Assembly: GCA_002840435.1 (NCBI GenBank)
Contig: PHAT01000001.1
Span: 592,979-656,978, forward strand
Direction of reading: 5' to 3'
DNA from: Deltaproteobacteria bacterium HGW-Deltaproteobacteria-6
GTDB taxonomy: Bacteria > Desulfobacterota > Syntrophia > Syntrophales > Smithellaceae
DNA length: 64,000 bases
Each line of letters opens with the position of its first letter. The stretch's first letter is position 1. The notes below the pieces were generated by a model that was given only the letters and a program-made list of their open reading frames with translations, did not search any database and had not been told where the DNA came from. Positions 13,027 through 57,228 of the stretch are shown in pieces. Both the position numbers and the translations under genes were made by a program.

Positions 13027-13045
13027 CATTCCCTTTTGCGATCGG

Positions 13046-13138: not shown

Positions 13139-13163
13139 ACCTTGAAACACCTCATATGCCGCG

Positions 13164-13192: not shown

Positions 13193-13228
13193 GAAAAAAG
13201 TTATATTTCGAAAGATGAGTATCCCGTT

Positions 13229-14515: not shown

Positions 14516-15032
14516 TTTTAATAGTCTCCTGACATAAAATCCATTCATTAATATCCACCGTCTGCATTACACGTCATTTCGTTGAAATAAGTGTGATAAT
14601 GAGATTTCACTTCTCCGTGATAGCCAGTGGATTGGTTTATAGAATCAACTTATTTCGTAATATATACATTAAAGGGAAAAAGTCTGTCAATATCTTATAA
14701 TGGATCACCGTGGAAAGATGGTTTCTGTATGTAACAAACGGGCAAATGCCGGGATTTAAAGAAACAATCGCTTATTGGATATTATTCAAATAGTCAGGCA
14801 TGAGCGATGGTTATCGACACTCGCCTTGAGAAAATAATCAAATCGGGAGGAAATCAGTGATCTCCCTCTTGAATGAGAAAGCGATCAGTATAATGAGCGA
14901 ATTGAATGGCCCAAACCGATTAAAAAAGGGAAACGGCCGGTTCCGGCGAGTCCGCCTGATCTTGTCTTGAGGAATTGATTGACAAACAGGACCGGCCCGC
15001 ATACTCTACGATTACAGAAAGAGGTAAATGTT

Positions 15033-40238: not shown

Positions 40239-40915
40239 GTTGAGTAAATCATCCCGTCGATAATTTTTACGGACCGTCCGCATTGCGAAGCAAGCTCCGG
40301 GTTATGGGTAATAATGACGATGGTAATGCCTTCGTCGCGGTTGAGCCGCTGGAAGAGTTCCATAATCTCCTCGCCTGTTTTTACATCGAGGGCGCCCGTC
40401 GGTTCATCGGCCAGAATGATCGACGGCGATCCCACCAGGGCGCGTGCAATGGCTACGCGTTGCTGCTGCCCGCCGGACATTTCACTGGGGCGATGGCCGG
40501 CCCGTTGCTGGATGTCCACCTTGGTCAGGAATTCCATGCTCTTTTGCCTGATCTCATTCATGCTGATACCGCGATAGGTCAGAGGAACCCCCACATTTTC
40601 CAGGGCTGTCAGCTTGGGCAGAAGGTGATATTGCTGAAAAACAAACCCGATCTTCCGGTTTCTCAGGGTTGATAAAACCCGGTCGTCGTCATAAACAACC
40701 TTTGCTCCTTCTACATGGTAAGTTCCGGAATCAGGTTTTTCCAAAAGTCCCAGCATGTGCATCAGAGTGGATTTGCCGCTTCCCGACGGTCCGATAATGG
40801 CCAAAAGTTCTCCCCGCTCCACGGAAAGATTAATCCCCTTGAGGACATTCACTTCCGTTGGACCAATGCGATAGGATTTGCGTATATCCACAATATCCAG
40901 CATCAGGGAGTTCAT
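40235..40915 (-). CDS. MacB/LolD-type ABC ATP-binding protein
   Basis: [38 protein letters not shown]. Confidence 0.92.
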   Translation of the reverse strand: MNSLMLDIVDIRKSYRIGPTEVNVLKGINLSVERGELLAIIGPSGSGKSTLMHMLGLLEKPDSGTYHVEGAKVVYDDDRVLSTLRNRKIGFVFQQYHLLPKLTALENVGVPLTYRGISMNEIRQKSMEFLTKVDIQQRAGHRPSEMSGGQQQRVAIARALVGSPSIILADEPTGALDVKTGEEIMELFQRLNRDEGITIVIITHNPELASQCGRSVKIIDGMIYST

Positions 40916-42675
40916 TGATAGGTTACCTCATCACCGGCTGCAAGTCCGCTTGTGATCTCGACGGCATCCATGGAGGTAATCCCTGTCTCCACCTTCACTT
41001 TTTTCCCCTTATTTGTCGCTTTATCCCGGATGGTAACGAAACGGTTCGGTCCCTCTACGATTACGGCCGGAATCGGAATCATCAGAGCATTTGGCTTGTT
41101 AACCATCATGATTTCCATATTGGCCGACATGCCCAGACGAAGTTTCTCTTTCAGGACTGCAGGTAGGCTTTCCATGGTGACGGACACCTCGAAATTGGCT
41201 GTTTTTTTCCCATCATTGCTTTTAACAGCCTGGGATGAGATATGGGCAACCCGTCCCTTGATTGAGTCGCCAAAAGCGTCAACCGTAATCCGGACATCCT
41301 GGCCTACTTTTATTTTCAACACTTCCAGTTCATCCACGCCTGCTGTCATGGACAGACCTTCCGTATTGCCTATGGAAAGCAGAATGTCGCCCTGCGAGAA
41401 TGTTACACCCAACTCGACGGTTTTCCCTTTCTGCTGTTTATCACCGGCCAGATCGGGAAGCAGAATAGTCCCGGAAACCGGCGCAATAATATCGGAATGA
41501 CGAAGTTGGATTTCGAGATCCTGCAATTTTTGACGGGTATTCTGCAGTTTGAGATCAGCAATGTGCCTGTTTTGACCTTCCCCCTTTTGGCGGACAACCT
41601 CCATATCCCGGAGCGATGCTTCATAATCCATTTTTGCGGTTGTAAACTGCTGTTTGGCGCTGGCATATTCCGTAGCCGGAACAATGTCTTTTTTGAACAG
41701 GCGTTCCGTTTCCTGAAGGGTTTTCTGATAGCCGTCCAGACTCAACTTCGAACGTGTAACACTCTGCTGGGCCTTGGACATTTCGTTGCTGTTCTTCCAG
41801 TTATCCAACTCTTTGACTTTTTCCGCCGCTTCGATATAAGCCGTTTTTGCATCCCGGTACTTCACCGCTGTTTCGTTCTTGTCCAATCTGAGCAAAATTT
41901 GCCCTTTCGTAACCGCCTGCCCGTATTCGAATAATTTTTCCTTCACCATACCGCTGGCGGGACTGGTGATGTTGACAACCTGAATCGGTTTGAGGACGCC
42001 CTTCAGCGTAATGCTGTCCGTGAGGGGGCCGGGAACAACCGTATAAATCTTTGCTGTCTCACCTTTCCCGCCTTCGCCTGTCATCTTACCGGACGAAAGG
42101 TGGGTTTGTTTCCATGTAAACAATCCAATAGACAAAAATAGAACAATGACAAATCCCGTAGCCGCCACACGGATGATCTGCACTTTGCGCAGAGCTGACT
42201 TGAGGGTTTCGTTGGTTTCCTCCATTTCCAGATAGGACTTCTGGAGTTCATTATGCTTTTCCTTCAGTTCCCGGGTAAGACGCTCTTCCGATTCCTGGAG
42301 CCTTTCAACTTCTGTTTTATCTGTGAAGACGACCACTACGGCGACATTTTTCTTTACGCCGTTTTCTTTTTGAGAAAGAAAGGAGGTGGTCACTTCCAGA
42401 CTGAGAACCTGCCCCCCTTTATGCCATGGAACAATTTTATTGTGAATCGTGTCGGCGTCATAGACAGCATTGAGAATCGTCTGATTAAACGGGTCGTTTT
42501 CCTCACTTCCCAGAAAGACTTCGCCAAATGGTTTCTCGATTACGTCCTGATGATTCAGGCCGAGAATGTCTTCCGCAGCCTGATTAAAGGTCAGGATTTT
42601 GCCGTCAAGTCCGATCGTCATGACGCCGTCGCCCATGCTTTCGAGGATATTGCGGAATATGATGTCAGTTGCCAT
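40912..42675 (-). CDS. membrane-fusion (HlyD/MacA-type) adaptor with an N-terminal cytoplasmic PAS domain
   Basis: aa 1-125 are PAS-like (NILESMGDGVMTIGLDGKILTFNQAAEDILG...). A coiled coil follows, then the TM VAATGFVIVLFLSIGLF at about aa 165-187, then typical adaptor lipoyl/hairpin/barrel segments. Confidence 0.85.
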   Translation of the reverse strand: MATDIIFRNILESMGDGVMTIGLDGKILTFNQAAEDILGLNHQDVIEKPFGEVFLGSEENDPFNQTILNAVYDADTIHNKIVPWHKGGQVLSLEVTTSFLSQKENGVKKNVAVVVVFTDKTEVERLQESEERLTRELKEKHNELQKSYLEMEETNETLKSALRKVQIIRVAATGFVIVLFLSIGLFTWKQTHLSSGKMTGEGGKGETAKIYTVVPGPLTDSITLKGVLKPIQVVNITSPASGMVKEKLFEYGQAVTKGQILLRLDKNETAVKYRDAKTAYIEAAEKVKELDNWKNSNEMSKAQQSVTRSKLSLDGYQKTLQETERLFKKDIVPATEYASAKQQFTTAKMDYEASLRDMEVVRQKGEGQNRHIADLKLQNTRQKLQDLEIQLRHSDIIAPVSGTILLPDLAGDKQQKGKTVELGVTFSQGDILLSIGNTEGLSMTAGVDELEVLKIKVGQDVRITVDAFGDSIKGRVAHISSQAVKSNDGKKTANFEVSVTMESLPAVLKEKLRLGMSANMEIMMVNKPNALMIPIPAVIVEGPNRFVTIRDKATNKGKKVKVETGITSMDAVEITSGLAAGDEVTYQ

Positions 42676-42684
42676 TTTTTGCTC

Positions 42685-44346
42685 TCACGGTTTGGAGGAT
42701 TGTGTTTCTTTATTGACCGGGGTCTGCCGGATCTTATCATCTTCTCTGCGAACGTCAATTTTCCATGTGGACAGGGTCGTCCCAAGCGTTTCATCAAGGT
42801 TGGTCAGTGAATTCAGATAGGCGGTTCTGGCCGTTAATTCACTGTTCTGGGCATTCTGTAGGTCTCTTTGAAAACTGACAAATTGAAAGTTTGTCGTCCG
42901 GCCCGCGTTGAGTTTCTCTTTTTCAATTTGCAATTTCTTTTCAGCCAGTTCACGCGCCAGTGTCGCGCTTTTTAGCTGACGGTAGCTGGAATCAACATTG
43001 CGCAGAGCGTTCTGTACTTCGATTTCGATATCGAGTTTCTTTTTTTCAAAGGCCATGTTGGCCTTTTCCAAATCTTTCTTTATCGTCAGATAATTTTTTA
43101 TATCCGCTGTCATGTAATAAACGATGGGAATTGTCAAATCCAGACCGACATACCAGTCTCTTTCATTCGCACTGCTAAACGCCCGCCTGATTGACGAATC
43201 TTGGGAATCAAAGGTTGTCGCGGAGGCCCCGTCACTTGTGGAGGCTTTGAAATCCAGTTGCCAGAGCATATTACGCCTGGCCGTTGCCAGTTTTAACTTC
43301 AGTGATTCAATGCTCTTTGTGTCCTGTTGATAGTCTGTGCGGAACTGAAAGGCCAGCGCGAGCGCCTCCTCCAGAACAGGAGGGGATACCAATTCCTGGT
43401 TTTCATCAACCGCTTCAAACGTGGTATTTTTGTTAATGTACAGAGCCTGGATTAAAACCAGGCGGGCGTTATCCAGGCTGTTTTTTGCGTTGATCAGGGA
43501 TGTTTCCTGCGAGGCGATATCGGCCTGAGCCTGAACGATTTCCGTACCCGCCATCCGACCGGCTTCAATCATATCCTTATTGTATTCATACAGAGCCTTC
43601 GCCCGGACCAGACTCATTTCAGCAATGATCAGAGATCGTTCCGCGTCTTTGTAAGCACGGAAAGCCGTAATGGCCGTTCTGATCGTTTGCGAAATGGTGT
43701 TTCTCAAAGATAAGATATTGTTTTCTTCCGTGATCCGCGCAATTCTGACGTTTAAAGCGGCGTTATCCAGACCGCCTCCTTTAAGGAGCGGTTGTGTAAG
43801 CATGGCAGTCCAATCGGAACGATAATTGTTTATACCCTGGTCCATGTCGGAACGTTCGCCATGGTTGTTCCAGACAAAATCGATCTTGCCGCCGGTAGGA
43901 ATGGCCAGTGTAGCCGTGAAATTACCGTCACCGGTCAAATAATCCCTTCGGACTGAGTTGATCATGCCGGGCGACGTAAAACTTGATCCTCGTCTGACGG
44001 AAAGAGCCAGGGAGGGGTCGGAGGGCAGATAGTATTTTCTTTCCGCTTCCTGCAGGTCGACCCGCTGGAGATAGCGGTCAAGATACGCGCTGCGCAGAGT
44101 AACGTTATTGGTCAGGGCAACAAACACGGCATCCGCCAATGTCATTTTCCGGACATCATTTCTCTGATTATAGGCCGGATTTTGACAAAATCCGGGTCGT
44201 ACGGAGATAAGTAAAGACAAGGCGATCAGTAAAATTATGCTCAAAAAACGGATGCGTGGTTTCTCGGAGATGATGGTGAAAGATGATCCCCTCAATCTAC
44301 GATAACAGGAGGATTGTGAAAGTAATGCGCAGAGAATCATCTCCAT
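42685..44346 (-). CDS. TolC-family outer-membrane efflux protein
   Basis: 553 aa with two TolC repeats. First gene of the minus-strand efflux operon. Confidence 0.88.
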   Translation of the reverse strand: MEMILCALLSQSSCYRRLRGSSFTIISEKPRIRFLSIILLIALSLLISVRPGFCQNPAYNQRNDVRKMTLADAVFVALTNNVTLRSAYLDRYLQRVDLQEAERKYYLPSDPSLALSVRRGSSFTSPGMINSVRRDYLTGDGNFTATLAIPTGGKIDFVWNNHGERSDMDQGINNYRSDWTAMLTQPLLKGGGLDNAALNVRIARITEENNILSLRNTISQTIRTAITAFRAYKDAERSLIIAEMSLVRAKALYEYNKDMIEAGRMAGTEIVQAQADIASQETSLINAKNSLDNARLVLIQALYINKNTTFEAVDENQELVSPPVLEEALALAFQFRTDYQQDTKSIESLKLKLATARRNMLWQLDFKASTSDGASATTFDSQDSSIRRAFSSANERDWYVGLDLTIPIVYYMTADIKNYLTIKKDLEKANMAFEKKKLDIEIEVQNALRNVDSSYRQLKSATLARELAEKKLQIEKEKLNAGRTTNFQFVSFQRDLQNAQNSELTARTAYLNSLTNLDETLGTTLSTWKIDVRREDDKIRQTPVNKETQSSKP

Positions 44347-44750
44347 CTCTTTTTTACGGGTTATTTATTGTGTGCTCATTCAACATCAATATTCGCGCGA
44401 TACTATGCCAGAGTAGGGTCAATTGTCAATGATGTATTCAACGGCACAGTTCTTCTTTACTTATTTATTTGCTGCTAAGCATGCCGGAAATGGACGGGTT
44501 GACCGCCCTTCTATCGGTCGGATGCTCCCGATATTCCCCTCAAACAGATTAATACAGACAATCGCGAAAATCAGCAACATATCGTAATTTAATGTTTTTT
44601 AAATATGCTTCCCGATATGCTTCTTTCGCACCTGATCTTCTCCCCGCATCATTTTTTTCCCATTACAAGATTATTATGGTATATTCATGTGCGGTTGATG
44701 CATGCTGTTTGTGCTTCTGAACCATATTTTTGTACCTTAACTTATGGCCT

Positions 44751-45194
44751 ATGAAACCTGAAGATAAAAACATGGAATACCTTACCCTTCAGAAAGAAAA
44801 CCTGCATTTGAAGCAAAGCATCGCCGCCCTGCGCGATCAAATGGAAAAAATGGAGATTGCCCGGGAAGAGGCCGTACAGAATACCCTGCATTCCGTACAG
44901 GGCGAAATCACCCAGCTTCGGACAACCATTGCCGCAATGCGTGAAGAACTGGAAAAAACCTGTTACGAAAAAGACTGTCTCTTTCAGCAGGAAACTGCAA
45001 CCGCAAATGATAGAAGCAAACAGCTGCATGATACAATCGTAGCCCTGCGCGCCGAACTGGAGCACCGGGAAGGAAAGTATCAGGAAGACCTTCAGGCAAT
45101 TACCAGAAATTATCGTGACGAAGTTATTCAGTTGCATCAGACGATCAACGCATTGAGAGAGAATCTGGAACAAAAGAAAAACAAGAATCCGTAA
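44751..45194 (+). CDS. coiled-coil protein with four ~35-aa repeats
   Basis: HLKQSIAALRDQMEK, QLRTTIAAMREELEK, QLHDTIVALRAELEH and QLHQTINALRENLEQ. It ends 12 nt before the cyclase gene. The start is uncertain (44730 TTG, 44751 or 44772 ATG). Confidence 0.65.
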   Translation: MKPEDKNMEYLTLQKENLHLKQSIAALRDQMEKMEIAREEAVQNTLHSVQGEITQLRTTIAAMREELEKTCYEKDCLFQQETATANDRSKQLHDTIVALRAELEHREGKYQEDLQAITRNYRDEVIQLHQTINALRENLEQKKNKNP

Positions 45195-45206: not shown

Positions 45207-47477
45207 ATGAAAAAAAACAATCAGAATAACCACACTGCAAAGCGCATGAGTTTGAAGAAAATGCAGTTGCTGCTCGATATTTCCCGGAAAGTATCGACGC
45301 TGGAAACACTAGATGAAATACTGGCGGAACTGATCAAGATTACCACGTCCGAGTTGGGCGCAGACCGGGGAACAATTTTTCTGAATGATCCGGAAACGGG
45401 AGAATTATATTCCCGGGTTGCACAGGGAAATATTCAACGGGAAATCAGAGTACTGAACAACAGCGGCATCGCGGGAGCCGTTTTTCATTCCGGAAAAAGC
45501 CTGATTATCAACGATGCATACAGTGATAAACGATTTAACCAATCCGTGGATGAAAAGACAGGCTATATTACAAAATCAATTCTCTGTGTTCCCATCAGAG
45601 CCGCCAAAAATGAAATTATCGGGGCTGCCCAGGTCTTAAACAAGAAAGAAGGTCATTTCACGGAAGATGACGTGATGCTCCTCGAAGCGATAGCCACGCA
45701 GGCGGCCATTGCCCTCCAAAGCACCATATTCACGGAGCGAATGAAAAAATTCCGCACGAAAGAGATGGAATTTTTCGACGTGGTCGCCGAAGCAACTTCG
45801 GAAATCAACCTGGGCGTTCTCCTTCGCAAGGTCATGTCCGAGGCAATGCGGATGATGGATGCCGAACGTTCCACCCTGTTTCTTAATGATGAAAAAACAA
45901 ATGAACTATATTCAAGGATTGGCGAAGGCTTAGGAACCATAGAAATTCGCTTTCCTAATAACGTAGGCATTGCCGGAACGGTTTTTCAATCCGGTGAAGC
46001 CATTAATATCCCCCATGCCTATGCCGACCTGAGATTCAACCCGTCTTTCGACAAGAAAACGGGGTTTTTCACCCGTTCCATCCTCTGTACTCCCGTCACC
46101 AATAAATCCGGCAAGATTATCGGCGTTACACAGGTTTTGAATAAAATGGGCGGTCCCTTTACTAAAGAGGATGAGATGCGTCTGAAAGCTTTTACCGCTC
46201 AGGTTGCCATTGCCCTGGAAAATGCCAAGCTCTTTGATGATGTGCAAAACATGAAGAATTACAATGAAGGCATGCTGGAAAGCATGTCCAACGGCGTGAT
46301 CACCTTAAATGAGGAAGGGAAAATCATCACGTGCAATACGGCCGGCATGAGAATCATGAAGGTGTCTCCATCGGAAATACTCAACCGCAGGGCTGAAGAA
46401 TTTTTCAGCGGCGTCAATGCCTGGCTGCTGGAAAAAACCGAGAAAGTCGGCAAGACGCAGGAACAGGATGTCATTGTGGATGCCGACCTGATGTTCGGAG
46501 GGTCAAAACTTTCCGTCAACCTGACAATTCTTCCGCTCCTCAGCGTCACGAAAAAGAAACTTGGAACGATGATTGTCATTGAAGACATTTCGAGTGAGAA
46601 ACGCATGAAGTCGACTATGTCCAGGTATATCGACCCGGCCCTCACCGATCAGATCATGGATTGCACGGAGGACTTCATGGGAGGTAAGAACATAACAGCC
46701 ACCATTCTGTTTTCCGATATCCGCGGTTTTACCACATTGACTGAAGAACTGGGCGCGCAGGGCACCGTCGCCCTCCTCAATGAATATTTTACATTGATGG
46801 TGGACTGCATCCAGAAACAGGGCGGTATTCTGGATAAGTTTATTGGCGATGCGATAATGGCCGCCTTTGGCATACCCTTGTCGCATGACGACGACGAGGA
46901 CCGCGCGGTCCGTGCCGCAATTAACATGGTAACGGCTCTCCACGAGTGGAATAAGGTGCGGATCGGCGACGGCAAAAAGCCTGTGCGGATAGGAATAGGT
47001 TTAAATACCGACTCAATTGTTTCCGGAAACATCGGTTCCCCCAAGCGTACGGATTATACGGTCATCGGCGATGGCGTCAATCTGGCTTCGCGCCTGGAGT
47101 CCGCCTGCAAGCAATATCATGCTTCTATTCTGATTTCCGACAATACTTACCGCAGGCTCAAAGGCACGTACCGCGTCCGGAAGGTCGACCGGGTGGTGGT
47201 CAAAGGTAAAACGGAGCCGGTGAGTATTTACGAAGTGCTTGACCACCACACGGAAGAAACTTTCCCCAACCTCATGGATGTGATCAATAATTTCTCGCAT
47301 GGCCTGATTTGTTATCAAAAAGGGCAATGGAACAAGGCTATCGAGGCATTCCAGAGCACATTGTCTTTAAACAGCAATGACAAACTCTGCTCCATGTATA
47401 TAGACAGATGCGAGGTTATGAAAAATAATCCACCGACCGGTGAATGGGACGGTGTTTGGGTCATGACATCGAAATAA
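45207..47477 (+). CDS. GAF-GAF-PAS class III adenylate/guanylate cyclase
   Basis: 756 aa with two GAF domains (GTIFLNDPETGELYSRV and STLFLNDEKTNELYSRI), a PAS domain, and a CHD catalytic domain (ATILFSDIRGFTTLTE, KFIGDAIMAAFG, GSPKRTDYTVIGDGVNLASRLE). Confidence 0.92.
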   Translation: MKKNNQNNHTAKRMSLKKMQLLLDISRKVSTLETLDEILAELIKITTSELGADRGTIFLNDPETGELYSRVAQGNIQREIRVLNNSGIAGAVFHSGKSLIINDAYSDKRFNQSVDEKTGYITKSILCVPIRAAKNEIIGAAQVLNKKEGHFTEDDVMLLEAIATQAAIALQSTIFTERMKKFRTKEMEFFDVVAEATSEINLGVLLRKVMSEAMRMMDAERSTLFLNDEKTNELYSRIGEGLGTIEIRFPNNVGIAGTVFQSGEAINIPHAYADLRFNPSFDKKTGFFTRSILCTPVTNKSGKIIGVTQVLNKMGGPFTKEDEMRLKAFTAQVAIALENAKLFDDVQNMKNYNEGMLESMSNGVITLNEEGKIITCNTAGMRIMKVSPSEILNRRAEEFFSGVNAWLLEKTEKVGKTQEQDVIVDADLMFGGSKLSVNLTILPLLSVTKKKLGTMIVIEDISSEKRMKSTMSRYIDPALTDQIMDCTEDFMGGKNITATILFSDIRGFTTLTEELGAQGTVALLNEYFTLMVDCIQKQGGILDKFIGDAIMAAFGIPLSHDDDEDRAVRAAINMVTALHEWNKVRIGDGKKPVRIGIGLNTDSIVSGNIGSPKRTDYTVIGDGVNLASRLESACKQYHASILISDNTYRRLKGTYRVRKVDRVVVKGKTEPVSIYEVLDHHTEETFPNLMDVINNFSHGLICYQKGQWNKAIEAFQSTLSLNSNDKLCSMYIDRCEVMKNNPPTGEWDGVWVMTSK

Positions 47478-47502: not shown

Positions 47503-48603
47503 TCAATGGCTGGTCTGTCGTTCATTGAAAAGCGGATCGGCGAACCATTGTTCCATAAACGCACGCTTATCATCACACCTGGGATTCTTCCAGCAGGATG
47601 CATAAATGATGTCCGGCATACCCGCCCGGCTGATCCGTATTTCATAAGGCTTATTTTCTCTGACAACATGGATGTAGGTGACAAAACTCTCGGCAAAATC
47701 CTCCCAGAGATCGGCTCCCGCATGAATTGTCGGATAATTTGTTCTGGTGTTCAGCGTTTCGTAAATTCTGGTTATCTGGTTTTCTGTTAATGCAGAATAG
47801 TCGAATGCATATGGTTTGATCGATTTTCTTTCCGGAAATACTTCGTCAAAAACGCTTTTTATTTCATGATCGCTTTTGTACCAGGACAACTTTGAAAAAG
47901 GTCCGATCATAATTTCTTTTTTTGTCCAGGATGAGTGGGCAGAGCTTACCATACCCAGAGAATGGCCTATCTCATGGAGCATGATATAGACAATGGCACT
48001 CTGCGCGTTGTTGTTTTCCAGTGATTCAATCGTAACATCCAACTTAACCTGTTCGGCCGTACCGGGTTTAAATATGCTTCTTTCCTTCCAGGTCGCCCAG
48101 TCATTCGCTTTTCTTTTGAGCAGAACGTCCCGATCAAGCACAATAAATGTATACCTCTCCATGCCGCTTTCATCCATAACCGATTCAACGTAGCCGCTGC
48201 CGCCGAGGTTTTTGACGGCAAAAATACCGATGATTTTGTTTTTAGCGAGCATCATCACGGACATCGGTAAACTGTCTTCCACTTGTTTTATGGCTGCTGA
48301 AAATTCCGGCGGCAGTTCCGCGGGAACAGGAATTTCCCTGAAACCTTCCAACTGATTATCCAGAATAAGCTTTTCAATCAGGTCATCCGGCGCTTTGGCC
48401 AGTCTCTCTGATAAAGGTTGTTTCTGCCATGCGCTGCCCCAGTATTGAATTGTTCTGACTTTATGCTTTAAGGATTTTTCCTTGATATCTTCCTTGCAGG
48501 ATGGGGCGGAGACACAAATGAGAAAATAGATCTGACAGATAATAAAGACCATCGACACGATGAGCAGACCCGGATTGTTTCTATTCTTTATTGGATTCAT
48601 CAT
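47503..48603 (-). CDS. membrane-anchored putative zinc metallopeptidase (HExxH ... E)
   Basis: N-terminal anchor LLIVSMVFIICQIYFLICV, then MLHEIGHSLG, then a downstream WEDFAESFVTY (gluzincin-like third ligand). The start is 3 nt after the HD gene stop. Confidence 0.7.
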   Translation of the reverse strand: MMNPIKNRNNPGLLIVSMVFIICQIYFLICVSAPSCKEDIKEKSLKHKVRTIQYWGSAWQKQPLSERLAKAPDDLIEKLILDNQLEGFREIPVPAELPPEFSAAIKQVEDSLPMSVMMLAKNKIIGIFAVKNLGGSGYVESVMDESGMERYTFIVLDRDVLLKRKANDWATWKERSIFKPGTAEQVKLDVTIESLENNNAQSAIVYIMLHEIGHSLGMVSSAHSSWTKKEIMIGPFSKLSWYKSDHEIKSVFDEVFPERKSIKPYAFDYSALTENQITRIYETLNTRTNYPTIHAGADLWEDFAESFVTYIHVVRENKPYEIRISRAGMPDIIYASCWKNPRCDDKRAFMEQWFADPLFNERQTSH

Positions 48604-48606
48604 TTC

Positions 48607-49521
48607 TTATTCGACGCAGCGAAGGCCGGACGCGCGCCTGAGTTTGTTCCTGAAGTTGGTGCTGTCGTCGGCAATAATGGCGTCCAGATAGGTCATTTGA
48701 CGAACAACAGATTCACTGTAGAGGTCCTGGGCAATGCCGTACCGGGCATTGAAATGTTCTTTCATCCGTCCCGACACCCGGCCGAGTGTGACGTCCAGCC
48801 TGTTCTTTGTTGACGCGTAAAATCCGGAAGTTTTCAAGATGATGTCAAAGGCTTTGTCATAGCCTCCAATCCCCGCTTCGCGGAATTCATAATAAAGGAA
48901 AAGCAGCTTCTCGAGGTATGCCCTGTCCGCCATCTGACCAAGAAGATCAGCAGTCGCCAGTATTTCTGCGGCGATTCTCTCTTTTTCGGAATCGAAAACA
49001 AGGCTTTCCCAGGGGCGTCCGAGATCGGTGCCGAGGATTATTCGCGATATACGGGCGGCAGTTCTGGAACTTAGCCCGAAAGCGTCGGCTTCCAACAGTG
49101 TAAAAACCGCGGATCGGTTCACATGCGTTTTTGTGTACTGGCCTCCTGTGCCGCTGGTATCTCCTGTCTTTCGGATATAACCTGTATCATGGAGCAGGGC
49201 TGCGATGAGAACCTCTTCGGCGATTTTAGGCCCCAGTTTAAGTCCGGAGACCTCGCAGCCGTCAAGCAGCCGTGATGTAGCGGCAAAGACCGCTGCAATG
49301 TGAGCGAAATTATGGTATTCGACGGCACAGGCTAAATAACCGGGAAAACGGCCATCATAAAGGCGCTTCGTGAGCAGGAATACTTTATGGATGCGATTGA
49401 AGTCCGCATTCCCGTACGAGACCCGATAGAGCCGTTTTGCTTCCCCGAGGATAGTACGCGGTTTATTGGGATCAACCAGGATGGATATTTGGATTTCTTT
49501 CTTGGGAACGGTAGCTGCCAT
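48607..49521 (-). CDS. HD-domain phosphohydrolase with PDE-like motifs
   Basis: EYHNFAHIAAV, then AALLHDTGY, then TADLLGQM give an H...HD...D arrangement. The YHNxxHA plus AAxxHD pair resembles class I cyclic-nucleotide phosphodiesterases. Confidence 0.75.
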   Translation of the reverse strand: MAATVPKKEIQISILVDPNKPRTILGEAKRLYRVSYGNADFNRIHKVFLLTKRLYDGRFPGYLACAVEYHNFAHIAAVFAATSRLLDGCEVSGLKLGPKIAEEVLIAALLHDTGYIRKTGDTSGTGGQYTKTHVNRSAVFTLLEADAFGLSSRTAARISRIILGTDLGRPWESLVFDSEKERIAAEILATADLLGQMADRAYLEKLLFLYYEFREAGIGGYDKAFDIILKTSGFYASTKNRLDVTLGRVSGRMKEHFNARYGIAQDLYSESVVRQMTYLDAIIADDSTNFRNKLRRASGLRCVE

Positions 49522-49582
49522 ATTATTTTCTGCACGCCATATCAGGATCTATGTAAGAAATTTATGGTCCATGCCATCGCTT

Positions 49583-50242
49583 TCATTGATGGACCAGAAT
49601 GACGACACGTCTGTTCTGGGCCTGATTTCCCGGAATGGATTGTCCCTGCGAATCCGTATTAGGCATAAGCGGTTTATTGTCGGCATACCCGATGATCTGC
49701 ACCTTTTCTTTTGGAATCCCATTGGCAATGAACAGACGGGCGACAGCACCCGCGCGTGCGGATGACAACTCCCAGTTTGACGGAAACTGCAGCGACTGGA
49801 TGGGCAAATTATCGGTGTGTCCCTCAATGGTGATGCGATATTTGATATTTGTCAGGGATCCGGCAATTTTCTTCAGGATCGCATAGGAGCTTTCATTGAG
49901 GTCAGCCGTCCCCAACGGAAAAAGAACCCCTTCCTTGAGCCCCAGCGCAACGGCATTGGCCCTTGTTTCAAAGGATGCAATGTTCTGATCGGCAACGACA
50001 ATTTTCTCCAACTCCTGCCAAATGGTCTGAAGGTCCTTCTCTTTCGCCTGAGCAACGCTTTGCTGGACTCCCATGGCTTTTTTCATGGAGTCCGCCACTT
50101 CTTTGTATTGTTCAACATCGACACTGGACACGGCGGCAATCAGAATAAAAAAACAGAAAAGCTGCGTGACCATATCGCCAAAGGTCATCTGCCAATCGTC
50201 GCTTTCCTGAACGTTCTTCCGAAAAGGCATTTTTCTTTGCAT
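49583..50242 (-). CDS. MotB/OmpA-family stator subunit homologue
   Basis: 219 aa. Single TM with the conserved channel Asp (TFGDMVTQLFCFFILI) and a C-terminal OmpA-like peptidoglycan-binding domain (ITIEGHTDN...SNWELSSARA). Confidence 0.88.
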   Translation of the reverse strand: MQRKMPFRKNVQESDDWQMTFGDMVTQLFCFFILIAAVSSVDVEQYKEVADSMKKAMGVQQSVAQAKEKDLQTIWQELEKIVVADQNIASFETRANAVALGLKEGVLFPLGTADLNESSYAILKKIAGSLTNIKYRITIEGHTDNLPIQSLQFPSNWELSSARAGAVARLFIANGIPKEKVQIIGYADNKPLMPNTDSQGQSIPGNQAQNRRVVILVHQ

Positions 50243-50254
50243 GCGCCACCCTCG

Positions 50255-51031
50255 TTATTTACGCTTCTTAATGGAGGCCCACCGTCGGGGGGGAAGATAG
50301 GCTTTGAGTTTGTCCATGACGATGGGCGCCGGGGTTTTGTCTTTCATGAACAGGACGCCGTCTCTGATCACAGACATCAGAATAATGCGCTCTTCGATTC
50401 TTTTTTCAACCTTTACGGCAATCGGCAGAAACAACATATACGCCAACAGAATCCCGTATAATGTTGCGGTCAGGGCCACGGCCATGGCCGGCCCGACCAG
50501 TTTGATGTTTACGCTCATGGTCTGCATCATGCTGATCAATCCGATAAGCGTTCCAATCAGACCGAAAGCGGGAGAAAGCTTTGCCATGGTGCGGAAGATG
50601 CCTGCCGAAGACATTTCCTGATCGTAGGTCTGCTCAATCCGCGTATCGAGAATTTCGCGAATTTCCTCGCGGGAATATCCGTCGATGAGCATCTGCATCG
50701 CATCCTGCAGAAAGATATTCTCAATCCCGGTCAATTGTTTCTCGATATGAATCTTCCCTTTTAAGGCAAACTCGTTGGCCAGATAGACCAGTTCATGAAT
50801 ATAATTGCCGATCGGAAGTTCTTCCCGTTTCAGTGCGCTGAAAAAGACACTGAACACCCTCATGACCTCCTTCATTGGATAGCAGATGAAGGTTGCCGCA
50901 ATGGTGCCGCCCAGAACAATCGCAATGCCGGGTAAATTCAGGAAAACCGTTACGCTGGTTGTCGCATGGTAGGTCGCAAATGTCAGGATTCCGATACCGA
51001 ACAAGATGCCCAGGACAGTCGCAATATTCAT
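50255..51031 (-). CDS. MotA/PomA-family proton-channel stator subunit homologue
   Basis: 258 aa, 4 TM with a large loop between TM2 and TM3. The C-terminal pair PAFGLIGTLIGLISM / GPAMAVALTATLYGILLAYMLFLP is typical of MotA/ExbB/TolQ. Confidence 0.88.
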   Translation of the reverse strand: MNIATVLGILFGIGILTFATYHATTSVTVFLNLPGIAIVLGGTIAATFICYPMKEVMRVFSVFFSALKREELPIGNYIHELVYLANEFALKGKIHIEKQLTGIENIFLQDAMQMLIDGYSREEIREILDTRIEQTYDQEMSSAGIFRTMAKLSPAFGLIGTLIGLISMMQTMSVNIKLVGPAMAVALTATLYGILLAYMLFLPIAVKVEKRIEERIILMSVIRDGVLFMKDKTPAPIVMDKLKAYLPPRRWASIKKRK

Positions 51032-52209
51032 GTAGTAACCCCTTTCAGAGCTTTTATCGTAAGAATCAATTCCCGCTCAATGTCTCCCGCTTCGATCTCA
51101 TCCACCGTCTGACCATTGGCAATCTGTTCTTTTACAACTTCTACCATCTTCTTGGAAAGGTTGGCATAAATTTTTGACCGGGCTTCATCCCCTGCAATCG
51201 ATACGAGGATGCAGACTTTGTAAGGGCCAAGTTTTGAAATGGCATCCTGAAGGGTTGTATTATCCACGAACACGACATCGTTGATGTCCTGGAGGTCTTC
51301 GATATTCAAAGTGCGGCGCTTCAATTTCTTGAAGAACATTGTGCCCACTTTGCCGGACCATTCGGAAGCCGCCTGCTGGTGAATAAAAAAAATATTCTCG
51401 GGAATTTCACCGGCGCCGATCTTCTTGTAGATTATTTCAGGCGTGCTATCGACCATCCTGGCAAAATCATTGATGTCGATAAACTCATGGCCGGTCGTCT
51501 CAACCGAAATCGTATTCTTGAATTCCGTATAAAACCGCTCGGCCGCTTTGAGGAACGTCTTGGGGTCGGAGGGCATCAGATAACGCTGCATGCTGTCTTC
51601 TTTACCCCGGCAATAGAAGTTGTCCGGCGCGGCATTCTTATCAATAATCTGGATGATGTTGACACTTTTCATCTTGTTGAGAAAAGTATCAACTTCCAGT
51701 TGCGAGAGGCCGAGAATCTCTTTAACTTTTGCCAGTACTGCATTATACGGTATTCCCATGCCCGCAGGTGTTTTTTCGCCGTGCGTCGACATCATGAATT
51801 CAATGATATTGCAGGTGCCAAGGAAAGCATTTGCCGCCGTTTGAGCGGAAATTTTCTGCGTGGTCGTCCTGAGCCGTTCGATAAGCACTTTGGTGATCGC
51901 TTGCACAATTTTCGGGCTGTCCAGAAGCACGTTGTTCAGAGTATCTTCACTGATAATGATCAGTTCGCAGAATTCTTCAACGATGGCACTGGCATTGCGG
52001 GGTTCGCCGCTGATGATCCCCATCTCTCCGAAGATTCCGCCGGCCTTGATATTCGCCAGAGTCACCCGTTTCCCATCAATCATTTTCTGAATGGTAACGG
52101 AACCGCTTTTAACCAGATAAGCAGTATTGGCTTTCTGGCCTTCTCTGAAAATGATCTGTCCCTTATGAAAGGGTTTTATGTTGTATTGATTATTATTGCT
52201 GGCGCTCAA
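51028..52209 (-). CDS. cyclic-nucleotide-binding domain protein with HTH-like middle region and FliG C-terminal (MgtE_N)-like domain
   Basis: aa 10-115 are cNMP-binding (FREGQKANTAYLVKSGSV...GGIFGEMGIISGEPRNASA). aa 315-390, VDNTTLQDAISKLGPYKVCILVSIAGDEARSKIYANLSKKMVEVVKEQIANGQTVDEIEAGDIERELILTIKAL, align without gaps to my memory of FliG_C (LDDRSIQ.VLREVDTRDLALALKGASDELKEKIFKNMSKRAAALLKDELEYMGPVRLKDVEEAQQKIINIIRRL). TTG start behind GGGGAGA. 4-nt overlap with the MotA-like gene. Confidence 0.8.
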   Translation of the reverse strand: MSASNNNQYNIKPFHKGQIIFREGQKANTAYLVKSGSVTIQKMIDGKRVTLANIKAGGIFGEMGIISGEPRNASAIVEEFCELIIISEDTLNNVLLDSPKIVQAITKVLIERLRTTTQKISAQTAANAFLGTCNIIEFMMSTHGEKTPAGMGIPYNAVLAKVKEILGLSQLEVDTFLNKMKSVNIIQIIDKNAAPDNFYCRGKEDSMQRYLMPSDPKTFLKAAERFYTEFKNTISVETTGHEFIDINDFARMVDSTPEIIYKKIGAGEIPENIFFIHQQAASEWSGKVGTMFFKKLKRRTLNIEDLQDINDVVFVDNTTLQDAISKLGPYKVCILVSIAGDEARSKIYANLSKKMVEVVKEQIANGQTVDEIEAGDIERELILTIKALKGVTT

Positions 52210-52460
52210 GGTATCTCCCCGATTGATAGAAATTAATCGCTAACAGCTTCCTTTGTGCGGGTGGAGTATAAAAAACGAGGTCATATATGTCAATGAAAAA
52301 CTTATCAATATGTTAGATTTTAACATCTGCTTTTTATCTGATGGGTTGTTGTGTATTCATGATTGGAGGTTAATGTTTTCAGCCAATCCAGAGGGTCGCT
52401 GCTTTCGGAGAGAATTACAGACCCGCCTTTGATCGTTTTCAATGTTTCCGTAGAATCGTG

Positions 52461-52537: not shown

Positions 52538-53500
52538 ATGAAGCGGCTTATGCTGATGATGGTTCTGGCAACTCTGATGATGGTCACCTCTTATCAGGCT
52601 TACGCCAGCGATTGGATAGCCTGTGCGGGTGAAAATGAATATTGCATGGTTCCCGGAACAAAGATGGTGCGGTACGGAGCCGGCGACCGATGGGTACTGA
52701 AAAGGGCGACCGATCGAATTTATTGCGGGAATAATGTGTTTGGTGATCCTGCCCGCGGTGTGTCAAAAGCCTGCTATTATCAGGACACGCAACATTCCGA
52801 TAAAGGATGGCGTCCTCCATCAGGATATAAAGGCGGTCATCAGGATCAATGGGTGCACTGCGCCAACGAAGGAGGATTTTGCAAGTTTAATGGCCAGAAG
52901 GATATCCGATATGGCGCCGGGGACAGGTGGAACTACCAATCGGCGAGGAACAGCATTGCCTGCAGTAACGATGTGTTTGGTGATCCTGCAGTAGGCGTGG
53001 GAAAAGCCTGTTATTATCAGGAGTCCCGACAACCGGACAAAGGATGGCGTCCTCCATCAGGACGTAACGACGGTCACCAGTATCAATGGGTGCACTGCGC
53101 CAACGAAGGAGGATTTTGCAGATTTAACGGCCAGAAGGATATCCGATATGGCGCCGGGGACAGGTGGAACTACCAATCGGCGAGGAACAGCATTGCCTGC
53201 AGTAACGATGTGTTTGGCGATCCCGCAGTAGGTGTGGGAAAAGCCTGCTATTATCAGGAGGCTCGACAACCGGACAAAGGATGGCATCCTTCATCAGGAT
53301 ATGACAACGGTCGTCAGGATCGCTGGGTACGCTGCGCCAACGAAGGAGGATATTGCAAATTTTACGGCCAAAGGGATATCCGATACGGCTCCGGAGACAG
53401 GTGGAACCATCAATCCGCAAGGAACGGTATTGGCTGCAGTAATAATGTGTTTGGCGATCCCGCGCCCGGTGTAGGAAAAGCTTGTTATATCAGGGAATAA
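52538..53500 (+). CDS. secreted Cys-containing tandem-repeat protein (four ~79-aa modules)
   Basis: Signal peptide MKRLMLMMVLATLMMVTSYQAYA, then four copies of W..CA.E...C.F.G...[IV]RYG.GDRW........I.C.N.VFGDP..GV.KACY. Family not recognised. Confidence 0.85.
   Translation: MKRLMLMMVLATLMMVTSYQAYASDWIACAGENEYCMVPGTKMVRYGAGDRWVLKRATDRIYCGNNVFGDPARGVSKACYYQDTQHSDKGWRPPSGYKGGHQDQWVHCANEGGFCKFNGQKDIRYGAGDRWNYQSARNSIACSNDVFGDPAVGVGKACYYQESRQPDKGWRPPSGRNDGHQYQWVHCANEGGFCRFNGQKDIRYGAGDRWNYQSARNSIACSNDVFGDPAVGVGKACYYQEARQPDKGWHPSSGYDNGRQDRWVRCANEGGYCKFYGQRDIRYGSGDRWNHQSARNGIGCSNNVFGDPAPGVGKACYIRE
52841..53314 (+). repeat. two near-identical tandem 237-bp repeat units inside the repeat-protein gene
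   Basis: ATCAATGGGTGCACTGCGCC starts at 52845 and again at 53082, giving a period of 237 nt (79 codons). By eye there are only about a dozen mismatches over roughly 215 nt. The outer copies are much more diverged. Confidence 0.9.
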
Positions 53501-55028: not shown

Positions 55029-55109
55029 AAGGGGTTACGCAGTTCACGTAACCCCTTAATATTTGGTGAGCCCTGTCGGGGTCGAACCGACAACCTACTG
55101 ATTAAGAGT
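55023..55109 (-). repeat. direct repeat, right copy: 3' half of the intact tRNA-Lys plus its terminator
   Basis: Partner of 53561-53645. The terminator stems differ by compensatory changes: GGGGTTACG/CGTAACCCC here, GGGGCTAC/GTAGCCCC in the left copy. Confidence 0.9.
55026..55055 (-). terminator. intrinsic terminator of the tRNA cluster
   Basis: Minus strand reads GGGGTTACG-tgaactg-CGTAACCCC followed by TTTTT, 8 nt after the tRNA-Lys 3' end. Confidence 0.75.
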
Positions 55110-55139
55110 CAGTTGCTCTACCAGCTGAGCTAAGGGCCC
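55064..55139 (-). tRNA. tRNA-Lys (anticodon CTT)
   Basis: Reverse complement is GGGCCCTTAGCTCAGCTGGTAGAGCAACTGACTCTTAATCAGTAGGTTGTCGGTTCGACCCCGACAGGGCTCACCA. Anticodon stem ACTGA/TCAGT with loop CTCTTAA. 76 nt, CCA encoded. Confidence 0.93.
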
Positions 55140-55154
55140 TTGTGCTTTCTATTC

Positions 55155-55231
55155 TGGTACGCCCGGTAGGATTCGAACCTACGACCAACAGATTCGAAGT
55201 CTGCGACTCTATCCAGCTGAGCTACGGGCGC
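55155..55231 (-). tRNA. tRNA-Arg (anticodon TCG)
   Basis: Reverse complement is GCGCCCGTAGCTCAGCTGGATAGAGTCGCAGACTTCGAATCTGTTGGTCGTAGGTTCGAATCCTACCGGGCGTACCA. Anticodon loop CTTCGAA. 77 nt. Confidence 0.9.
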
Positions 55232-55251
55232 GTAGTTTCAAATCCCAAAAA

Positions 55252-55329
55252 TGGGGTGAGTGAAGGGGTTCGAACCCTCGACCTCCGGGGCCACAACCCG
55301 GCACTCTAACCAGCTGAGCTACACCCACC
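55252..55329 (-). tRNA. tRNA-His (anticodon GTG, with G-1)
   Basis: Reverse complement is GGTGGGTGTAGCTCAGCTGGTTAGAGTGCCGGGTTGTGGCCCCGGAGGTCGAGGGTTCGAACCCCTTCACTCACCCCA. Anticodon stem CCGGG/CCCGG with loop TTGTGGC. 78 nt including the extra 5' G. Confidence 0.9.
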
Positions 55330-55339
55330 ATTTTCGTCT

Positions 55340-55416
<77 letters not shown>

Positions 55417-55500: not shown

Positions 55501-57228
55501 TTATCTAACATAACCGGCAATGCCGTCAAAACGGTACCCCTTTCGTTCTCCGGTTGCAGCTTTCGCATTTGTCGAATAATAATGCCTGCCTGTTGACGGA
55601 TTAAACCAGCGATACAATTCCCGGGTGTTTGTCATTCGGGATGTCGCAATGTTGCCGATCGTGCCTTCATAAACATAGCCGTCCAGTTTTTTTCCTCCAC
55701 CGGACCGGTCATAATGATAATAATGATCCCTTTTGACAGGATTATACCAGCGATAAAAGTTTGTTGTCCCGGGTGTTTGCGGCATGAAAAGCCTGAAAGC
55801 AATACCCTCTTTCAAATAACCGTTTTGGATCAGCCTTTTGGATTCCGCTTGAGGATCTATGGTAAACAAATAATCTTTGTCTTTTGAATATAAATAAACG
55901 TCAATGATTTTTGGTCCGGAATCAGACATTATATCTACATATATTTCCGCTTTTTCTTCGCCCGCATTGGATTTAAATATAATTTTATCTCCGTAATAGC
56001 CCGGAGTAAGATTGGACGTATCAACCTTAACATTGATATAATCAATTTCCGTCATGGTCGTTCCGGAATTGGGAAATACGGTAATCCAGCCCCTCGGGCC
56101 GCGCATAATATCTTTACCGAACACTTTGATGCCTTCCAGTTCCAAACTGCCTTCCCGGATTACAATTGTGACTACATGCGGGCCTTCCGCCAGTCCTTCG
56201 GCTATCACTAATTCTTTCTTTTCCCACTGACCGGATAACACGTCCGGCAGATTCAGCAATATTTCATCAAGATAGATGGAACAATTTCCATCCTCCGTAT
56301 GAGATTGCAGAAACACGCTGATTCCGGTCCCATTAAATCGATATTTTATGGAGCTTGCCGCCCCTTTACTTAATGGGTAGCCATTTTTTTCCGTCCATTT
56401 TCCAATCAATTCCATCGAATCTTTCAGGTGTTCGGGAATAATGTACTTACCCGGTTCCGGCAGCACTTCATTATGAAAAGACAGATATCTTTCTTTTTGT
56501 AATTCTCCGGGAATCTGAGCAACATTTGCCTGCGGCTGGGCGACAGACCATCTCAACATTTCCCTGCCTTTATTGATTAATTCTATTCTTTTAGAGATTA
56601 TTTTACCCGGTAATTGCGTACCTAAATCCAAACGTTGCGGATTTAAACTGATGGAAGGAATTTCCTGCAAGGCATGAATTCGAAAATCCACAAAGATCGT
56701 CCTTTGACCACCCGCTGAGGTTATCTTAATTGCCTTTCGATACTCACCGGCCTTTAAGTCTTTATTGCAGATGAGTTCTCTGCCCGCCGCCTCCAGTTTC
56801 ATGCTGGTTTGATAACCGGGAATTCTTTTTTTATCGCCCGGAATATTCTCCGCGCGTTCGGCAATTTTTAATTCCAGACTGAGATTAGCCGGTTCGCCCG
56901 ATACGGAACCTCTGAGCGTTTTACCCGTAACACCATCCCAGCCTTCCGGACAGGATGTTGACCAGGACATCGTTCCCGGTGAAATATTTTTTAAATTGAA
57001 TTCTCCAAAGACGGTTTCACCCGGTTTTACGGATCCCAGATCAATTTCCCGTGGCGTTACGGTCAGGACAGGACGCGATTCCTCTTTACTAACACTCGGC
57101 GGGATTACGGTGCCGGATGTCCGATGCTGATTGATGTTGTAATCTGATCCGGACAGCAAAGAAGGATGAAAGATTTCCAAGTTAAACACAACAAAAAATG
57201 AAATAAAACAAATTAATACCTTCTGCAT
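55501..57228 (-). CDS. secreted multi-domain protein (DUF1573-like Ig folds, C-terminal DUF5648-like repeats)
   Basis: Signal peptide MQKVLICFISFFVVF. IDLGSVKPGETVFGEFNLKN and LDLGTQLPGKIISKRIELIN are DUF1573-like. The C-terminal FYRWYNPVKRDHYYH...DGYVYEG and LYRWFNPSTGRHYYS...GYRFDG repeats are DUF5648-like. Confidence 0.8.
   Translation of the reverse strand: MQKVLICFISFFVVFNLEIFHPSLLSGSDYNINQHRTSGTVIPPSVSKEESRPVLTVTPREIDLGSVKPGETVFGEFNLKNISPGTMSWSTSCPEGWDGVTGKTLRGSVSGEPANLSLELKIAERAENIPGDKKRIPGYQTSMKLEAAGRELICNKDLKAGEYRKAIKITSAGGQRTIFVDFRIHALQEIPSISLNPQRLDLGTQLPGKIISKRIELINKGREMLRWSVAQPQANVAQIPGELQKERYLSFHNEVLPEPGKYIIPEHLKDSMELIGKWTEKNGYPLSKGAASSIKYRFNGTGISVFLQSHTEDGNCSIYLDEILLNLPDVLSGQWEKKELVIAEGLAEGPHVVTIVIREGSLELEGIKVFGKDIMRGPRGWITVFPNSGTTMTEIDYINVKVDTSNLTPGYYGDKIIFKSNAGEEKAEIYVDIMSDSGPKIIDVYLYSKDKDYLFTIDPQAESKRLIQNGYLKEGIAFRLFMPQTPGTTNFYRWYNPVKRDHYYHYDRSGGGKKLDGYVYEGTIGNIATSRMTNTRELYRWFNPSTGRHYYSTNAKAATGERKGYRFDGIAGYVR

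Follow-up and report, generated by a model that had tools for sequence, protein, structure and literature searches.

A FliG torque domain on a putative cyclic-nucleotide receptor encoded together with its own MotA and MotB

The stretch analysed here, hereafter the window, comprises 64,000 nucleotides (nt) of the Smithellaceae genome Deltaproteobacteria bacterium HGW-Deltaproteobacteria-6 (GenBank assembly GCA_002840435.1, contig PHAT01000001.1, positions 592,979 to 656,978 of the forward strand). At 47503-52209 it carries five minus-strand genes, the first of which encodes a soluble protein, here called the sensor, that combines a domain for binding cyclic nucleoside monophosphates (cNMP) with the C-terminal torque domain of FliG. 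The next two genes are motA and motB. Comparison across genomes indicates that sensor, motA and motB, hereafter the triad, form a conserved three-gene unit and not a chance association. We regard the triad as a 5:2 stator with a new type of partner. The genes and the signals that flank them are (aa, amino acids):

51028-52209, minus strand: sensor gene, 393 aa, TTG start
50255-51031, minus strand: motA, 258 aa, PomA-like stator A subunit
49583-50242, minus strand: motB, 219 aa, transmembrane (TM) helix with channel Asp, plug and OmpA-like peptidoglycan-binding domain
48607-49521, minus strand: HD-superfamily gene, 304 aa
47503-48603, minus strand: HExxH (HEIGH) gene, 366 aa, N-terminal hydrophobic segment, family not assigned
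52265-52293, minus strand: sigma-70-like promoter TTGACA-17-TATACT, 11/12, consensus match only
47428-47445, minus strand: terminator-like hairpin and T-run 3' of the HExxH gene, consensus match only

An ATGA at 51028-51031 makes the motA start overlap the sensor stop by 4 nt, and the later genes follow after gaps of 12 nt (motA-motB), 61 nt (motB-HD) and 3 nt (HD-HExxH). An earlier note on this DNA, made from the sequence alone, had described the same layout, and its five open reading frames (ORFs), coordinates, strand, overlap and gaps are all exact. The promoter-like site sits about 55 nt 5' of the sensor start, and the TTG is preceded by the ribosome-binding site GGGGAGA. Scanning the motB-HD gap for terminator-like sites revealed none. 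Because promoter and ribosome-binding site stand at the front and a terminator-like site occurs only after the last gene, a single transcript for the five genes is plausible, and they are probably transcribed as one in the window organism.

Searches of the PDB, by sequence and with Foldseek, using the whole sensor were swamped by CRP and PKA matches, and the protein was split for analysis. It is predicted to consist of a CRP-like cNMP-binding domain, a long helix, a winged helix, a second small helix-turn-helix (HTH) domain and FliG_C, in that order:

51925-52176, minus strand: cNMP_binding domain, residues 12-95 (Pfam E 3.4e-22)
51571-51834, minus strand: winged-helix domain 1 (wHTH1), residues ~126-213, by Foldseek
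51310-51492, minus strand: second small HTH-like domain (HTH2, HTH_17-like), residues ~240-300
51046-51291, minus strand: FliG C-terminal torque-generating domain, residues 307-388
51112-51162, minus strand: torque-helix equivalent, residues 350-366, with K354 = FliG R281, E361 = D288 and Q362 = D289

The earlier description of a soluble protein that starts with a cNMP-binding domain and ends in a FliG_C-like one is thus borne out at both ends, as the Pfam FliG_C model scores 29.0 bits against a cut-off of 23.3. A single-sequence PDB search with residues 200-393 returned only FliG C domains at the top of the list, and the aligned torque helix reads NLSKKMVEVVKEQIANG in the window protein and NMSQRAADILRDDLANRG in Salmonella. 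A profile built from 16 C-termini of the family matched only FliG significantly among PDB entries (T. maritima E 4.3e-13, Salmonella 9e-9). In the AlphaFold model of residues 214-393 (predicted local distance difference test score 81), the top 16 Foldseek matches are all FliG. The model superposes on the isolated T. maritima FliG C domain 1QC7 with a TM-score of 0.85 and a root-mean-square deviation of 1.7 Å, and on the FliG_C chain of the MotAB-FliG complex 8UCS (8UCS_H) with a TM-score of 0.79. The MgtE_N model gave no match in the window sensor. On sequence and predicted fold, the C-terminal domain is a genuine FliG_C. The sensor is not FliG itself, which is ruled out by the CRP fold at residues 1-215, by the lack of FliG_N and FliG_M (FliG_M gave no match, and FliG_N a single sub-threshold match overlapping the FliG_C region) and by the score against the fliG equivalog TIGR00207, 19.6 bits against a cut-off of 226.7. 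Other FliG_C matches of unusual length, considered as possible new sensor fusions, turned out to be FliG variants. Those met in the exhaustive search included a duplicated FliG_C, N-terminal DUF4116 repeats and a 996-aa FliM-FliG fusion.

Residues 1-215 are predicted to fold as a complete CRP-type receptor. The phosphate-binding cassette reads G61-E62...R71...A75 and is kept widely among 87 sensor representatives (G in 85, E in 74, R in 68 and A in 76). The fold of the sensor model matches CRP, GlxR and NtcA over 180-230 columns (Foldseek), and wHTH1 is CRP-like in structure although its sequence is poorly conserved; around its recognition helix neither the sequence as a whole nor any basic residue is conserved, and the window protein is acidic there (SQLEVD). 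HTH2 is about neutral (net charge ~0) and forms the best conserved stretch outside the nucleotide pocket (E242, D245, K263, E268, P270, F292, F293); one sensor-family member matches Pfam HTH_17. The sensor did not match Pfam HTH_Crp, its scores against the CRP and NtcA equivalogs fall far below the cut-offs, and a profile of residues 118-300 found chance-level matches only in the PDB, such as LEDGF at E 0.008. Over long alignments the sensor model fits Bdellovibrio Bd2879 best (277-314 columns, Foldseek), a protein that has been described as NBD-HTH1-HTH2 (nucleotide-binding domain and two HTH domains; PDB 9SFA). No PilZ domain was matched by Pfam in the sensor or in any of the five operon proteins.

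The stator subunits belong, on sequence grounds and by the terms of a 2025 survey of MotAB diversity (PMC12505986), to the flagellar structural class and not to the 'generic ion transporter' group. MotA matches Pfam MotA_ExbB at E 3e-26, and its PDB matches span residues 1-249 of 258, including the large cytoplasmic domain between TM2 and TM3; they are strongest with Paenibacillus MotA1 (5e-35), PomA (6e-34) and the MotA proteins of C. sporogenes and B. subtilis (about 1e-31), with ExbB at 1e-4. Curated TolQ and ExbB models reach E values of 5.5e-7 to 0.055, far below their cut-offs, and neither TonB nor TolA was found in the 64-kb window. MotB matches Pfam MotB_plug (E 4.5e-15) and OmpA (E 2.6e-19), and its OmpA-like domain is closest to flagellar MotB and PomB. 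The channel Asp is D23 (50174-50176) in the motif FGDMVT, kept in 6/6 aligned triad MotBs. These results agree with the initial descriptions of a PomA-sized MotA homologue translationally coupled to the sensor and of a MotB with the channel Asp and an OmpA-type anchor, and they add the plug. Both subunits nevertheless lie far below every curated flagellar equivalog cut-off (PomA, MotA, MotP, MotB, MotS and MotD); the best NCBIfam scores are 165.6 bits against a cut-off of 341 for PomA and 173.8 against 283 for MotD. Two features mark the MotA subfamily and are absent from PomA and MotA: the motif REELPIGNYI after TM2 (residues 68-77, ~50801-50830) and the C-terminal tail LKAYLPPRRW (residues 243-252, ~50276-50305). 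Flagellar-type stators are the FIT class of that survey.

The known rotor-stator contacts, in E. coli numbering of MotA, pair MotA R90 with FliG D288/D289 and MotA E98 with FliG R281 (PMC12505986). We scored the interface columns in 40 sensor/MotA pairs and in the broader set of 87 sensor representatives. The sensor is basic (K/R) at the FliG R281 position in 39/40 pairs and acidic (D/E) at the D288 position in 38/40, and MotA carries Glu at the PomA E96 column in 38/40. A [KR]-G motif lies 1-2 columns from PomA R88/K89 in all 40 pairs, its exact register being uncertain. The window MotA equivalents of PomA R88/K89 and E96 are K91, in the K-G motif, and E97. Among the 87 broader representatives the R281 position is basic in 70. 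The charges on both partners therefore fit a FliG-like docking on MotA, as far as alignments can indicate it. The KREE cluster that the earlier note had placed at roughly the FliG-contact position does not lie there: K68-E71 align about 20 residues upstream of the contact columns, and the cluster belongs to the post-TM2 REELPIGNYI signature of the subfamily.

A survey of gene neighbourhoods, which the earlier note had called for, found the order sensor-motA-motB in about 43 loci of Desulfovibrionales, Magnetomoraceae, Smithellaceae, Nitrospirae and Poribacteria, so that the module is spread over at least three phyla. Two outcomes that the earlier note had named as refuting its proposal, a C-terminal domain unlike FliG_C and a gene order confined to this genome, did not occur. 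The neighbourhoods include those of Desulfobaculum, Pseudodesulfovibrio, Solidesulfovibrio, Maridesulfovibrio hydrothermalis (at about 1.01 Mb of FO203522.1), Magnetomoraceae, two Nitrospirae metagenome-assembled genomes (MAGs) and the close relatives of the window genome. A scan of 185,579 species genomes with MotA as query returned 34 loci, two of them from Poribacteria. In all 33 MotA-found loci with a MotA at least 48% identical, a sensor homologue lies directly upstream and typically ends 4 nt inside motA. Across triad groups MotA is 66-79% identical and the sensors 37-55%. A genome scan with the sensor as single query gave no match, and about 32 sensor relatives were all that a word-indexed search recovered; when the C-terminal half was used as a profile, an exhaustive search yielded about 90-115 clusters (50% identity) that contain the whole module, the proteins being 375-420 aa long and ranking ahead of canonical FliG. 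cNMP_binding is present in 87/87 tested representatives and FliG_C was reached in 79/87. Forms of 294 aa from Syntrophales (P0010-P0016) stop right before FliG_C, keeping the three domains NBD-HTH1-HTH2 as stand-alone proteins, and they also have no motAB. A second motA upstream of the sensor, suggested in some loci by crude ORF clustering, was an artefact according to a hidden Markov model scan, and no second motA, motB or sensor was found within the window.

Several individual loci show further arrangements. At the Syntrophales locus P0016 an HD-domain gene converges to within 9 nt of the short sensor form. The motB gene of locus L036, from an uncultured deltaproteobacterial MAG, is directly followed by a second sensor paralogue within a 676-codon open frame (11947-13977). 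The triad of one Nitrospirae MAG (L009) is flanked at 8299-9663 and 12953-15169 by a gene resembling cNMP-gated ion channels (Ion_trans plus cNMP_binding) and a SulP-STAS-cNMP_binding transporter, which together form a local cluster of cNMP effectors.

The earlier proposal of a five-gene system does not hold beyond the first three genes. Homologues of the HD and HExxH proteins were sought with tblastn in 46 comparison loci and none was found, and the relatives whose sensors are 74% and 61% identical have an FGE-sulfatase gene or nothing at the corresponding position. The HD protein has sub-threshold Pfam matches only (HD E 0.018; PDEase_I E 0.045, 13.9 bits against a cut-off of 24.8). The PDEase_I match covers just the YHNxxH...HD motif region, where the protein reads YHNFAH...LLHDTGY. 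The HExxH protein has a match at the level of the zincin motif only (Peptidase_M10 E 0.0065), and neither protein matched any solved structure. By these comparisons both genes are lineage-specific additions outside the conserved system. Non-orthologous HD-type genes do adjoin the sensor family in four separate contexts:

Context 1: window operon, HD gene after motB
Context 2: Desulfobaculum group, GAF-HD_5-REC upstream
Context 3: Solidesulfovibrio group, 263-aa HD protein and REC-TPR downstream
Context 4: short sensor form, 184-aa HD protein beside it

The convergent neighbour of the operon could also bear on cyclic nucleotides:

45207-47477, plus strand: GAF-GAF-PAS class III adenylate/guanylate cyclase with TPR

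The cyclase is a possible source of the sensor ligand, and its gene is not conserved next to other triads. The window HD protein is possibly a cNMP phosphodiesterase, and its motif, the weak PDEase_I match and the adjacent cyclase suggest local turnover of the ligand. A heptad-rich, coiled-coil-like ORF of 154 aa (44730-45194, plus strand) is probably co-transcribed with the cyclase gene, since it ends 12 nt before it.

The remainder of the window is ordinary chromosome, with recJ, citrate synthase, topA, dprA, trmFO, Liv-type and MacAB-type transporters and a tRNA cluster. The TopA protein shares 83-92% identity with its counterparts in Smithellaceae and Smithella MAGs, which places the host in Smithellaceae (Syntrophales). 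Domain searches of the approximately 45 window ORFs of at least 150 aa detected no flagellar, chemotaxis, Tol or Ton gene, as had been noted at first reading. The divergent neighbour of the operon (52538-53500, plus strand) encodes a 320-aa secreted Cys-rich protein without a Pfam family; the gene consists of about 3.2 tandem copies, at the DNA level, of a 237-bp unit with 86% matches, and the resulting repeats of about 79 aa follow the pattern C..E.G.C.F.G..DIRYGAGDRW...C.N.VFGDPA.GV.KACYY. A Lys-Arg-His-Arg tRNA cluster (55064-55416, minus strand) adjoins the gene at 55501-57228 (minus strand) for a 575-aa secreted protein with a terminal DUF5648 domain. About 20 kb from the operon lies the gene of a putative signalling protein with an HDOD domain (30963-31817, plus strand; E 3.9e-62). 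An efflux operon at 39057-44346 (minus strand) encodes TolC-like, HlyD-type, ABC and MacB proteins, and its membrane-fusion protein (40912-42675) bears an N-terminal PAS domain. MacAB-type transporter sets also occur less than 10 kb from the triad in several unrelated loci, including L005, L010 and those of the Solidesulfovibrio group; this proximity could be coincidence or a link.

Starting from the domain identities, the FliG_C homology, the stator features, the obligate synteny and the conserved interface charges, we infer physical docking, nucleotide control, the direction of signalling and the physiological output as follows. The reading we favour, at somewhat under even confidence, is that the sensor serves its own stator as cognate cytoplasmic partner, with cNMP controlling a FliG-like docking and through it the activation of the stator. 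MotA and MotB would make up this dedicated stator, PomAB-like and of 5:2 composition, complete with ion channel, plug and peptidoglycan anchor, and the charge pairs used by rotor FliG would hold the FliG_C-like domain against the cytoplasmic ring of MotA. Whether MotA meets the FliG_C-like domain would depend on cAMP or cGMP bound at the N-terminal domain. A flagellar stator unplugs, anchors and conducts ions on contact with FliG, and for this reason the module could work as a cNMP-switched stator, in which ion flow and rotation are turned on and off without a C ring. In the window genome the operon would have gained the phosphodiesterase-like HD gene and the HExxH gene and, with the adjoining cyclase, may provide a local circuit that makes, senses and degrades the ligand. 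The coincident loss of FliG_C and motAB in the 294-aa Syntrophales forms supports this cognate pairing.

A further claim, which we consider possible if somewhat doubtful, is that the triad is an autonomous non-flagellar device whose sole 'rotor' is a soluble dimeric cyclic-nucleotide receptor with a FliG torque domain. If so, a peptidoglycan-anchored stator would have its ion flow or rotation gated by cAMP or cGMP in the absence of any flagellum, or else the motor would exert mechanical or energetic control over a CRP-like regulator. Both versions would tie ion-motive force directly to second-messenger signalling and perhaps to gene expression. That the triad is non-flagellar, as first proposed, is unproven. 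In none of the neighbourhoods annotated with Pfam (nine triad loci, the window and the two Poribacteria loci) is the triad part of a flagellar operon, and a FliG_C profile detected no canonical fliG within 10 kb in the 34 loci scanned. The triad looks like a self-contained unit spread between phyla; in Poribacteria it sits within sugar and sulfatase gene contexts. On weak evidence, the window host may lack flagella: two papers report Smithellaceae/Syntrophaceae MAGs with only flhG/flgP or without a flagellar gene set, and the literature on flagella of Smithella and Poribacteria gave weak hints or nothing.

A number of observations weigh against a cognate, self-contained stator partner. Most triad hosts belong to flagellated taxa (Desulfovibrionales, Magnetomoraceae). 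The model assigns no role to the two winged-helix-type domains, which point to DNA binding. Of the broader representatives, only 49/87 and 44/87 are acidic at the D288 and D289 positions, respectively. The basic MotA residue is offset by 1-2 columns, so that this half of the charge pairing is, from the alignment, only compatible with the flagellar one. Full-length sensors also occur without adjacent motAB, as two tandem copies in Maridesulfovibrio bastinii (locus L011) and as a solo gene on a metagenomic contig, 4-10 kb downstream of flgJ-flgN-flgK-flgL-csrA-fliW and flgM. The tandem copies are:

L011 8815-9975: M. bastinii sensor, cNMP and FliG_C
L011 10001-11137: M. bastinii sensor, cNMP and FliG_C

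Because FliG_C sensors occur in such places, the sensor may be able to work in trans, possibly on flagellar stators.

In an alternative that we rate as rather unlikely, the triad is an auxiliary flagellar stator with a cNMP clutch, one of several stator sets that drive the flagellum of the host, and the sensor is a FliG decoy that holds stator units off the rotor or releases them to it according to cAMP/cGMP. The principle would be that of the c-di-GMP proteins YcgR, MotI and FlgZ, here reached through mimicry of the rotor. MotA and MotB bear every flagellar-type feature and have flagellar stators as their best matches, and besides the prevalence of flagellated hosts, Desulfovibrio species carry 3-4 uncharacterised stator sets, a surplus that such a clutch would help to explain. 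The Desulfobaculum triad has fliM 2 kb away, the solo sensor lies near late flagellar genes, and genes for methyl-accepting chemotaxis proteins occur in the flanks of two triad loci. Translational coupling in 33/33 loci, however, resembles an obligate partner more than a regulator, no triad lies within a flagellar operon, and the triad is present in Smithellaceae, for which the reports on flagella are weak evidence, as well as in the sugar and sulfatase contexts of Poribacteria. The winged-helix domains suggest instead a stator-tethered transcription factor: FliG_C would park a cNMP-dependent DNA-binding regulator on the MotA ring, and the state of the stator (ion-motive force, wall anchoring) together with cNMP would set how much regulator reaches the DNA. 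A complete CRP fold in residues 1-215, the same NBD-HTH1-HTH2 order in Bd2879, the HTH_17 match of one member and the short Syntrophales forms, which consist of exactly these three domains, are in keeping with it. We find it quite improbable, as the wHTH1 recognition-helix region is unconserved and non-basic, HTH2 is close to neutral, HTH_Crp is not matched, and a plain tether needs no conserved channel Asp, plug or peptidoglycan anchor.

Two further explanations have very little to recommend them. A five-gene machine, with the HD hydrolase and the HExxH membrane protein as effectors or accessory motor subunits, would account for the co-directional genes with gaps of 61 and 3 nt, the lack of a terminator before the HExxH stop, the HD-type genes beside the sensor family in four contexts and the YHNxxH...HD motif with its weak PDEase_I match. 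As a conserved system it is largely refuted by the negative tblastn search in the 46 loci and by the FGE-sulfatase gene, or nothing, at that position in the 61-74% sensor relatives; the two proteins also match no solved structure and pass no family cut-off. Ordinary flagellar motAB that by chance follow an unrelated Crp-family regulator gene is what public annotations imply ('chemotaxis protein MotA', 'Crp/Fnr family transcriptional regulator'). We hold this to be most implausible, since the torque domain on the regulator is genuinely that of FliG and keeps its contact charges, the genes are paired across phyla with start-stop overlap, the loss of FliG_C accompanies the loss of motAB, and MotA and MotB miss all curated flagellar equivalog cut-offs by a wide margin.

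To our knowledge, the FliG torque domain had until now been a hallmark of the flagellar rotor. Stators of the flagellar class, which combine a plug with a large torque interface, are regarded as specialists for this rotor. Finding the torque domain outside the rotor and locked to a stator of its own would surprise specialists, and the triad may represent a new wiring of a second messenger to a membrane motor. Should it regulate flagellar stators, it would be the first clutch of a cAMP/cGMP type that mimics the rotor, and if this is true it would explain part of the long-noted surplus of stator sets in Desulfovibrio. Should it be autonomous, a 5:2 motor would have been put to a new use, and the triad would offer a minimal, soluble-partner system in which to study the activation of stators by FliG contact. 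In either case it makes testable how second messengers other than c-di-GMP (cyclic di-GMP) reach a membrane motor.

The earlier note knew of no described system with this composition, and for the sensor, MotA and MotB this stands: the literature searched yielded no account of a cNMP-FliG_C protein, whether by itself or paired with MotAB. The closest relatives are flagellar MotAB/PomAB and FliG, with which the triad shares the end-to-end MotA match, the plug, channel Asp and OmpA-like domain of MotB, the E98/E96 equivalent and, on the sensor, a six-helix C-terminal torque domain with the R281 and D288 equivalents. Unlike in FliG, this domain is carried by a soluble cNMP receptor without the FliF-binding FliG_N or the FliM-binding FliG_M, and the sensor cannot build a C ring because it lacks both. 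Unlike flagellar MotAB, the triad stands alone outside flagellar operons, with scores far below the equivalog cut-offs. The N-terminal domain of MgtE likewise provides a FliG-like helical domain outside the flagellum, but the sensor matches FliG_C, and structurally the torque-generating subdomain specifically.

YcgR, MotI (DgrA) and FlgZ are c-di-GMP proteins whose binding to MotA or MotC brakes or declutches the flagellum. The sensor resembles them as a soluble second-messenger receptor predicted to act on the cytoplasmic face of a stator. It differs in having a cNMP-binding domain rather than PilZ and c-di-GMP, in its predicted mimicry of the rotor through FliG_C and in the translational coupling of its gene to a dedicated motAB. 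With CRP/FNR regulators and Bd2879 it shares the cNMP-binding domain, C-helix and winged helix, and with Bd2879 also the second HTH, in the same order. Bd2879, however, ends in a disordered zinc-finger region where the sensor has FliG_C, and in contrast to these regulators the HTH regions of the sensor have no conserved basic residues. We know of no linkage of Bd2879 to a stator.

Zorya and other defence systems were considered and rejected, as PADLOC did not match MotA to ZorA, gave no more than generic ZorB/MotB similarity in the case of MotB and detected no effector genes; the sensor matched only via the cNMP domain of Pycsar effectors. If its autonomy holds, the triad joins ExbBD-TonB, TolQR-TolA, AglRQS, GldLM and ZorAB as a MotAB-type unit with a non-rotor partner. 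The subunits of those non-flagellar 5:2 motors are divergent, in that they lack the plug, have a condensed cytoplasmic domain or carry the ZorA tail, and their partners are membrane or periplasmic proteins, whereas the triad has a flagellar-class stator whose partner is a cytoplasmic FliG_C fusion.

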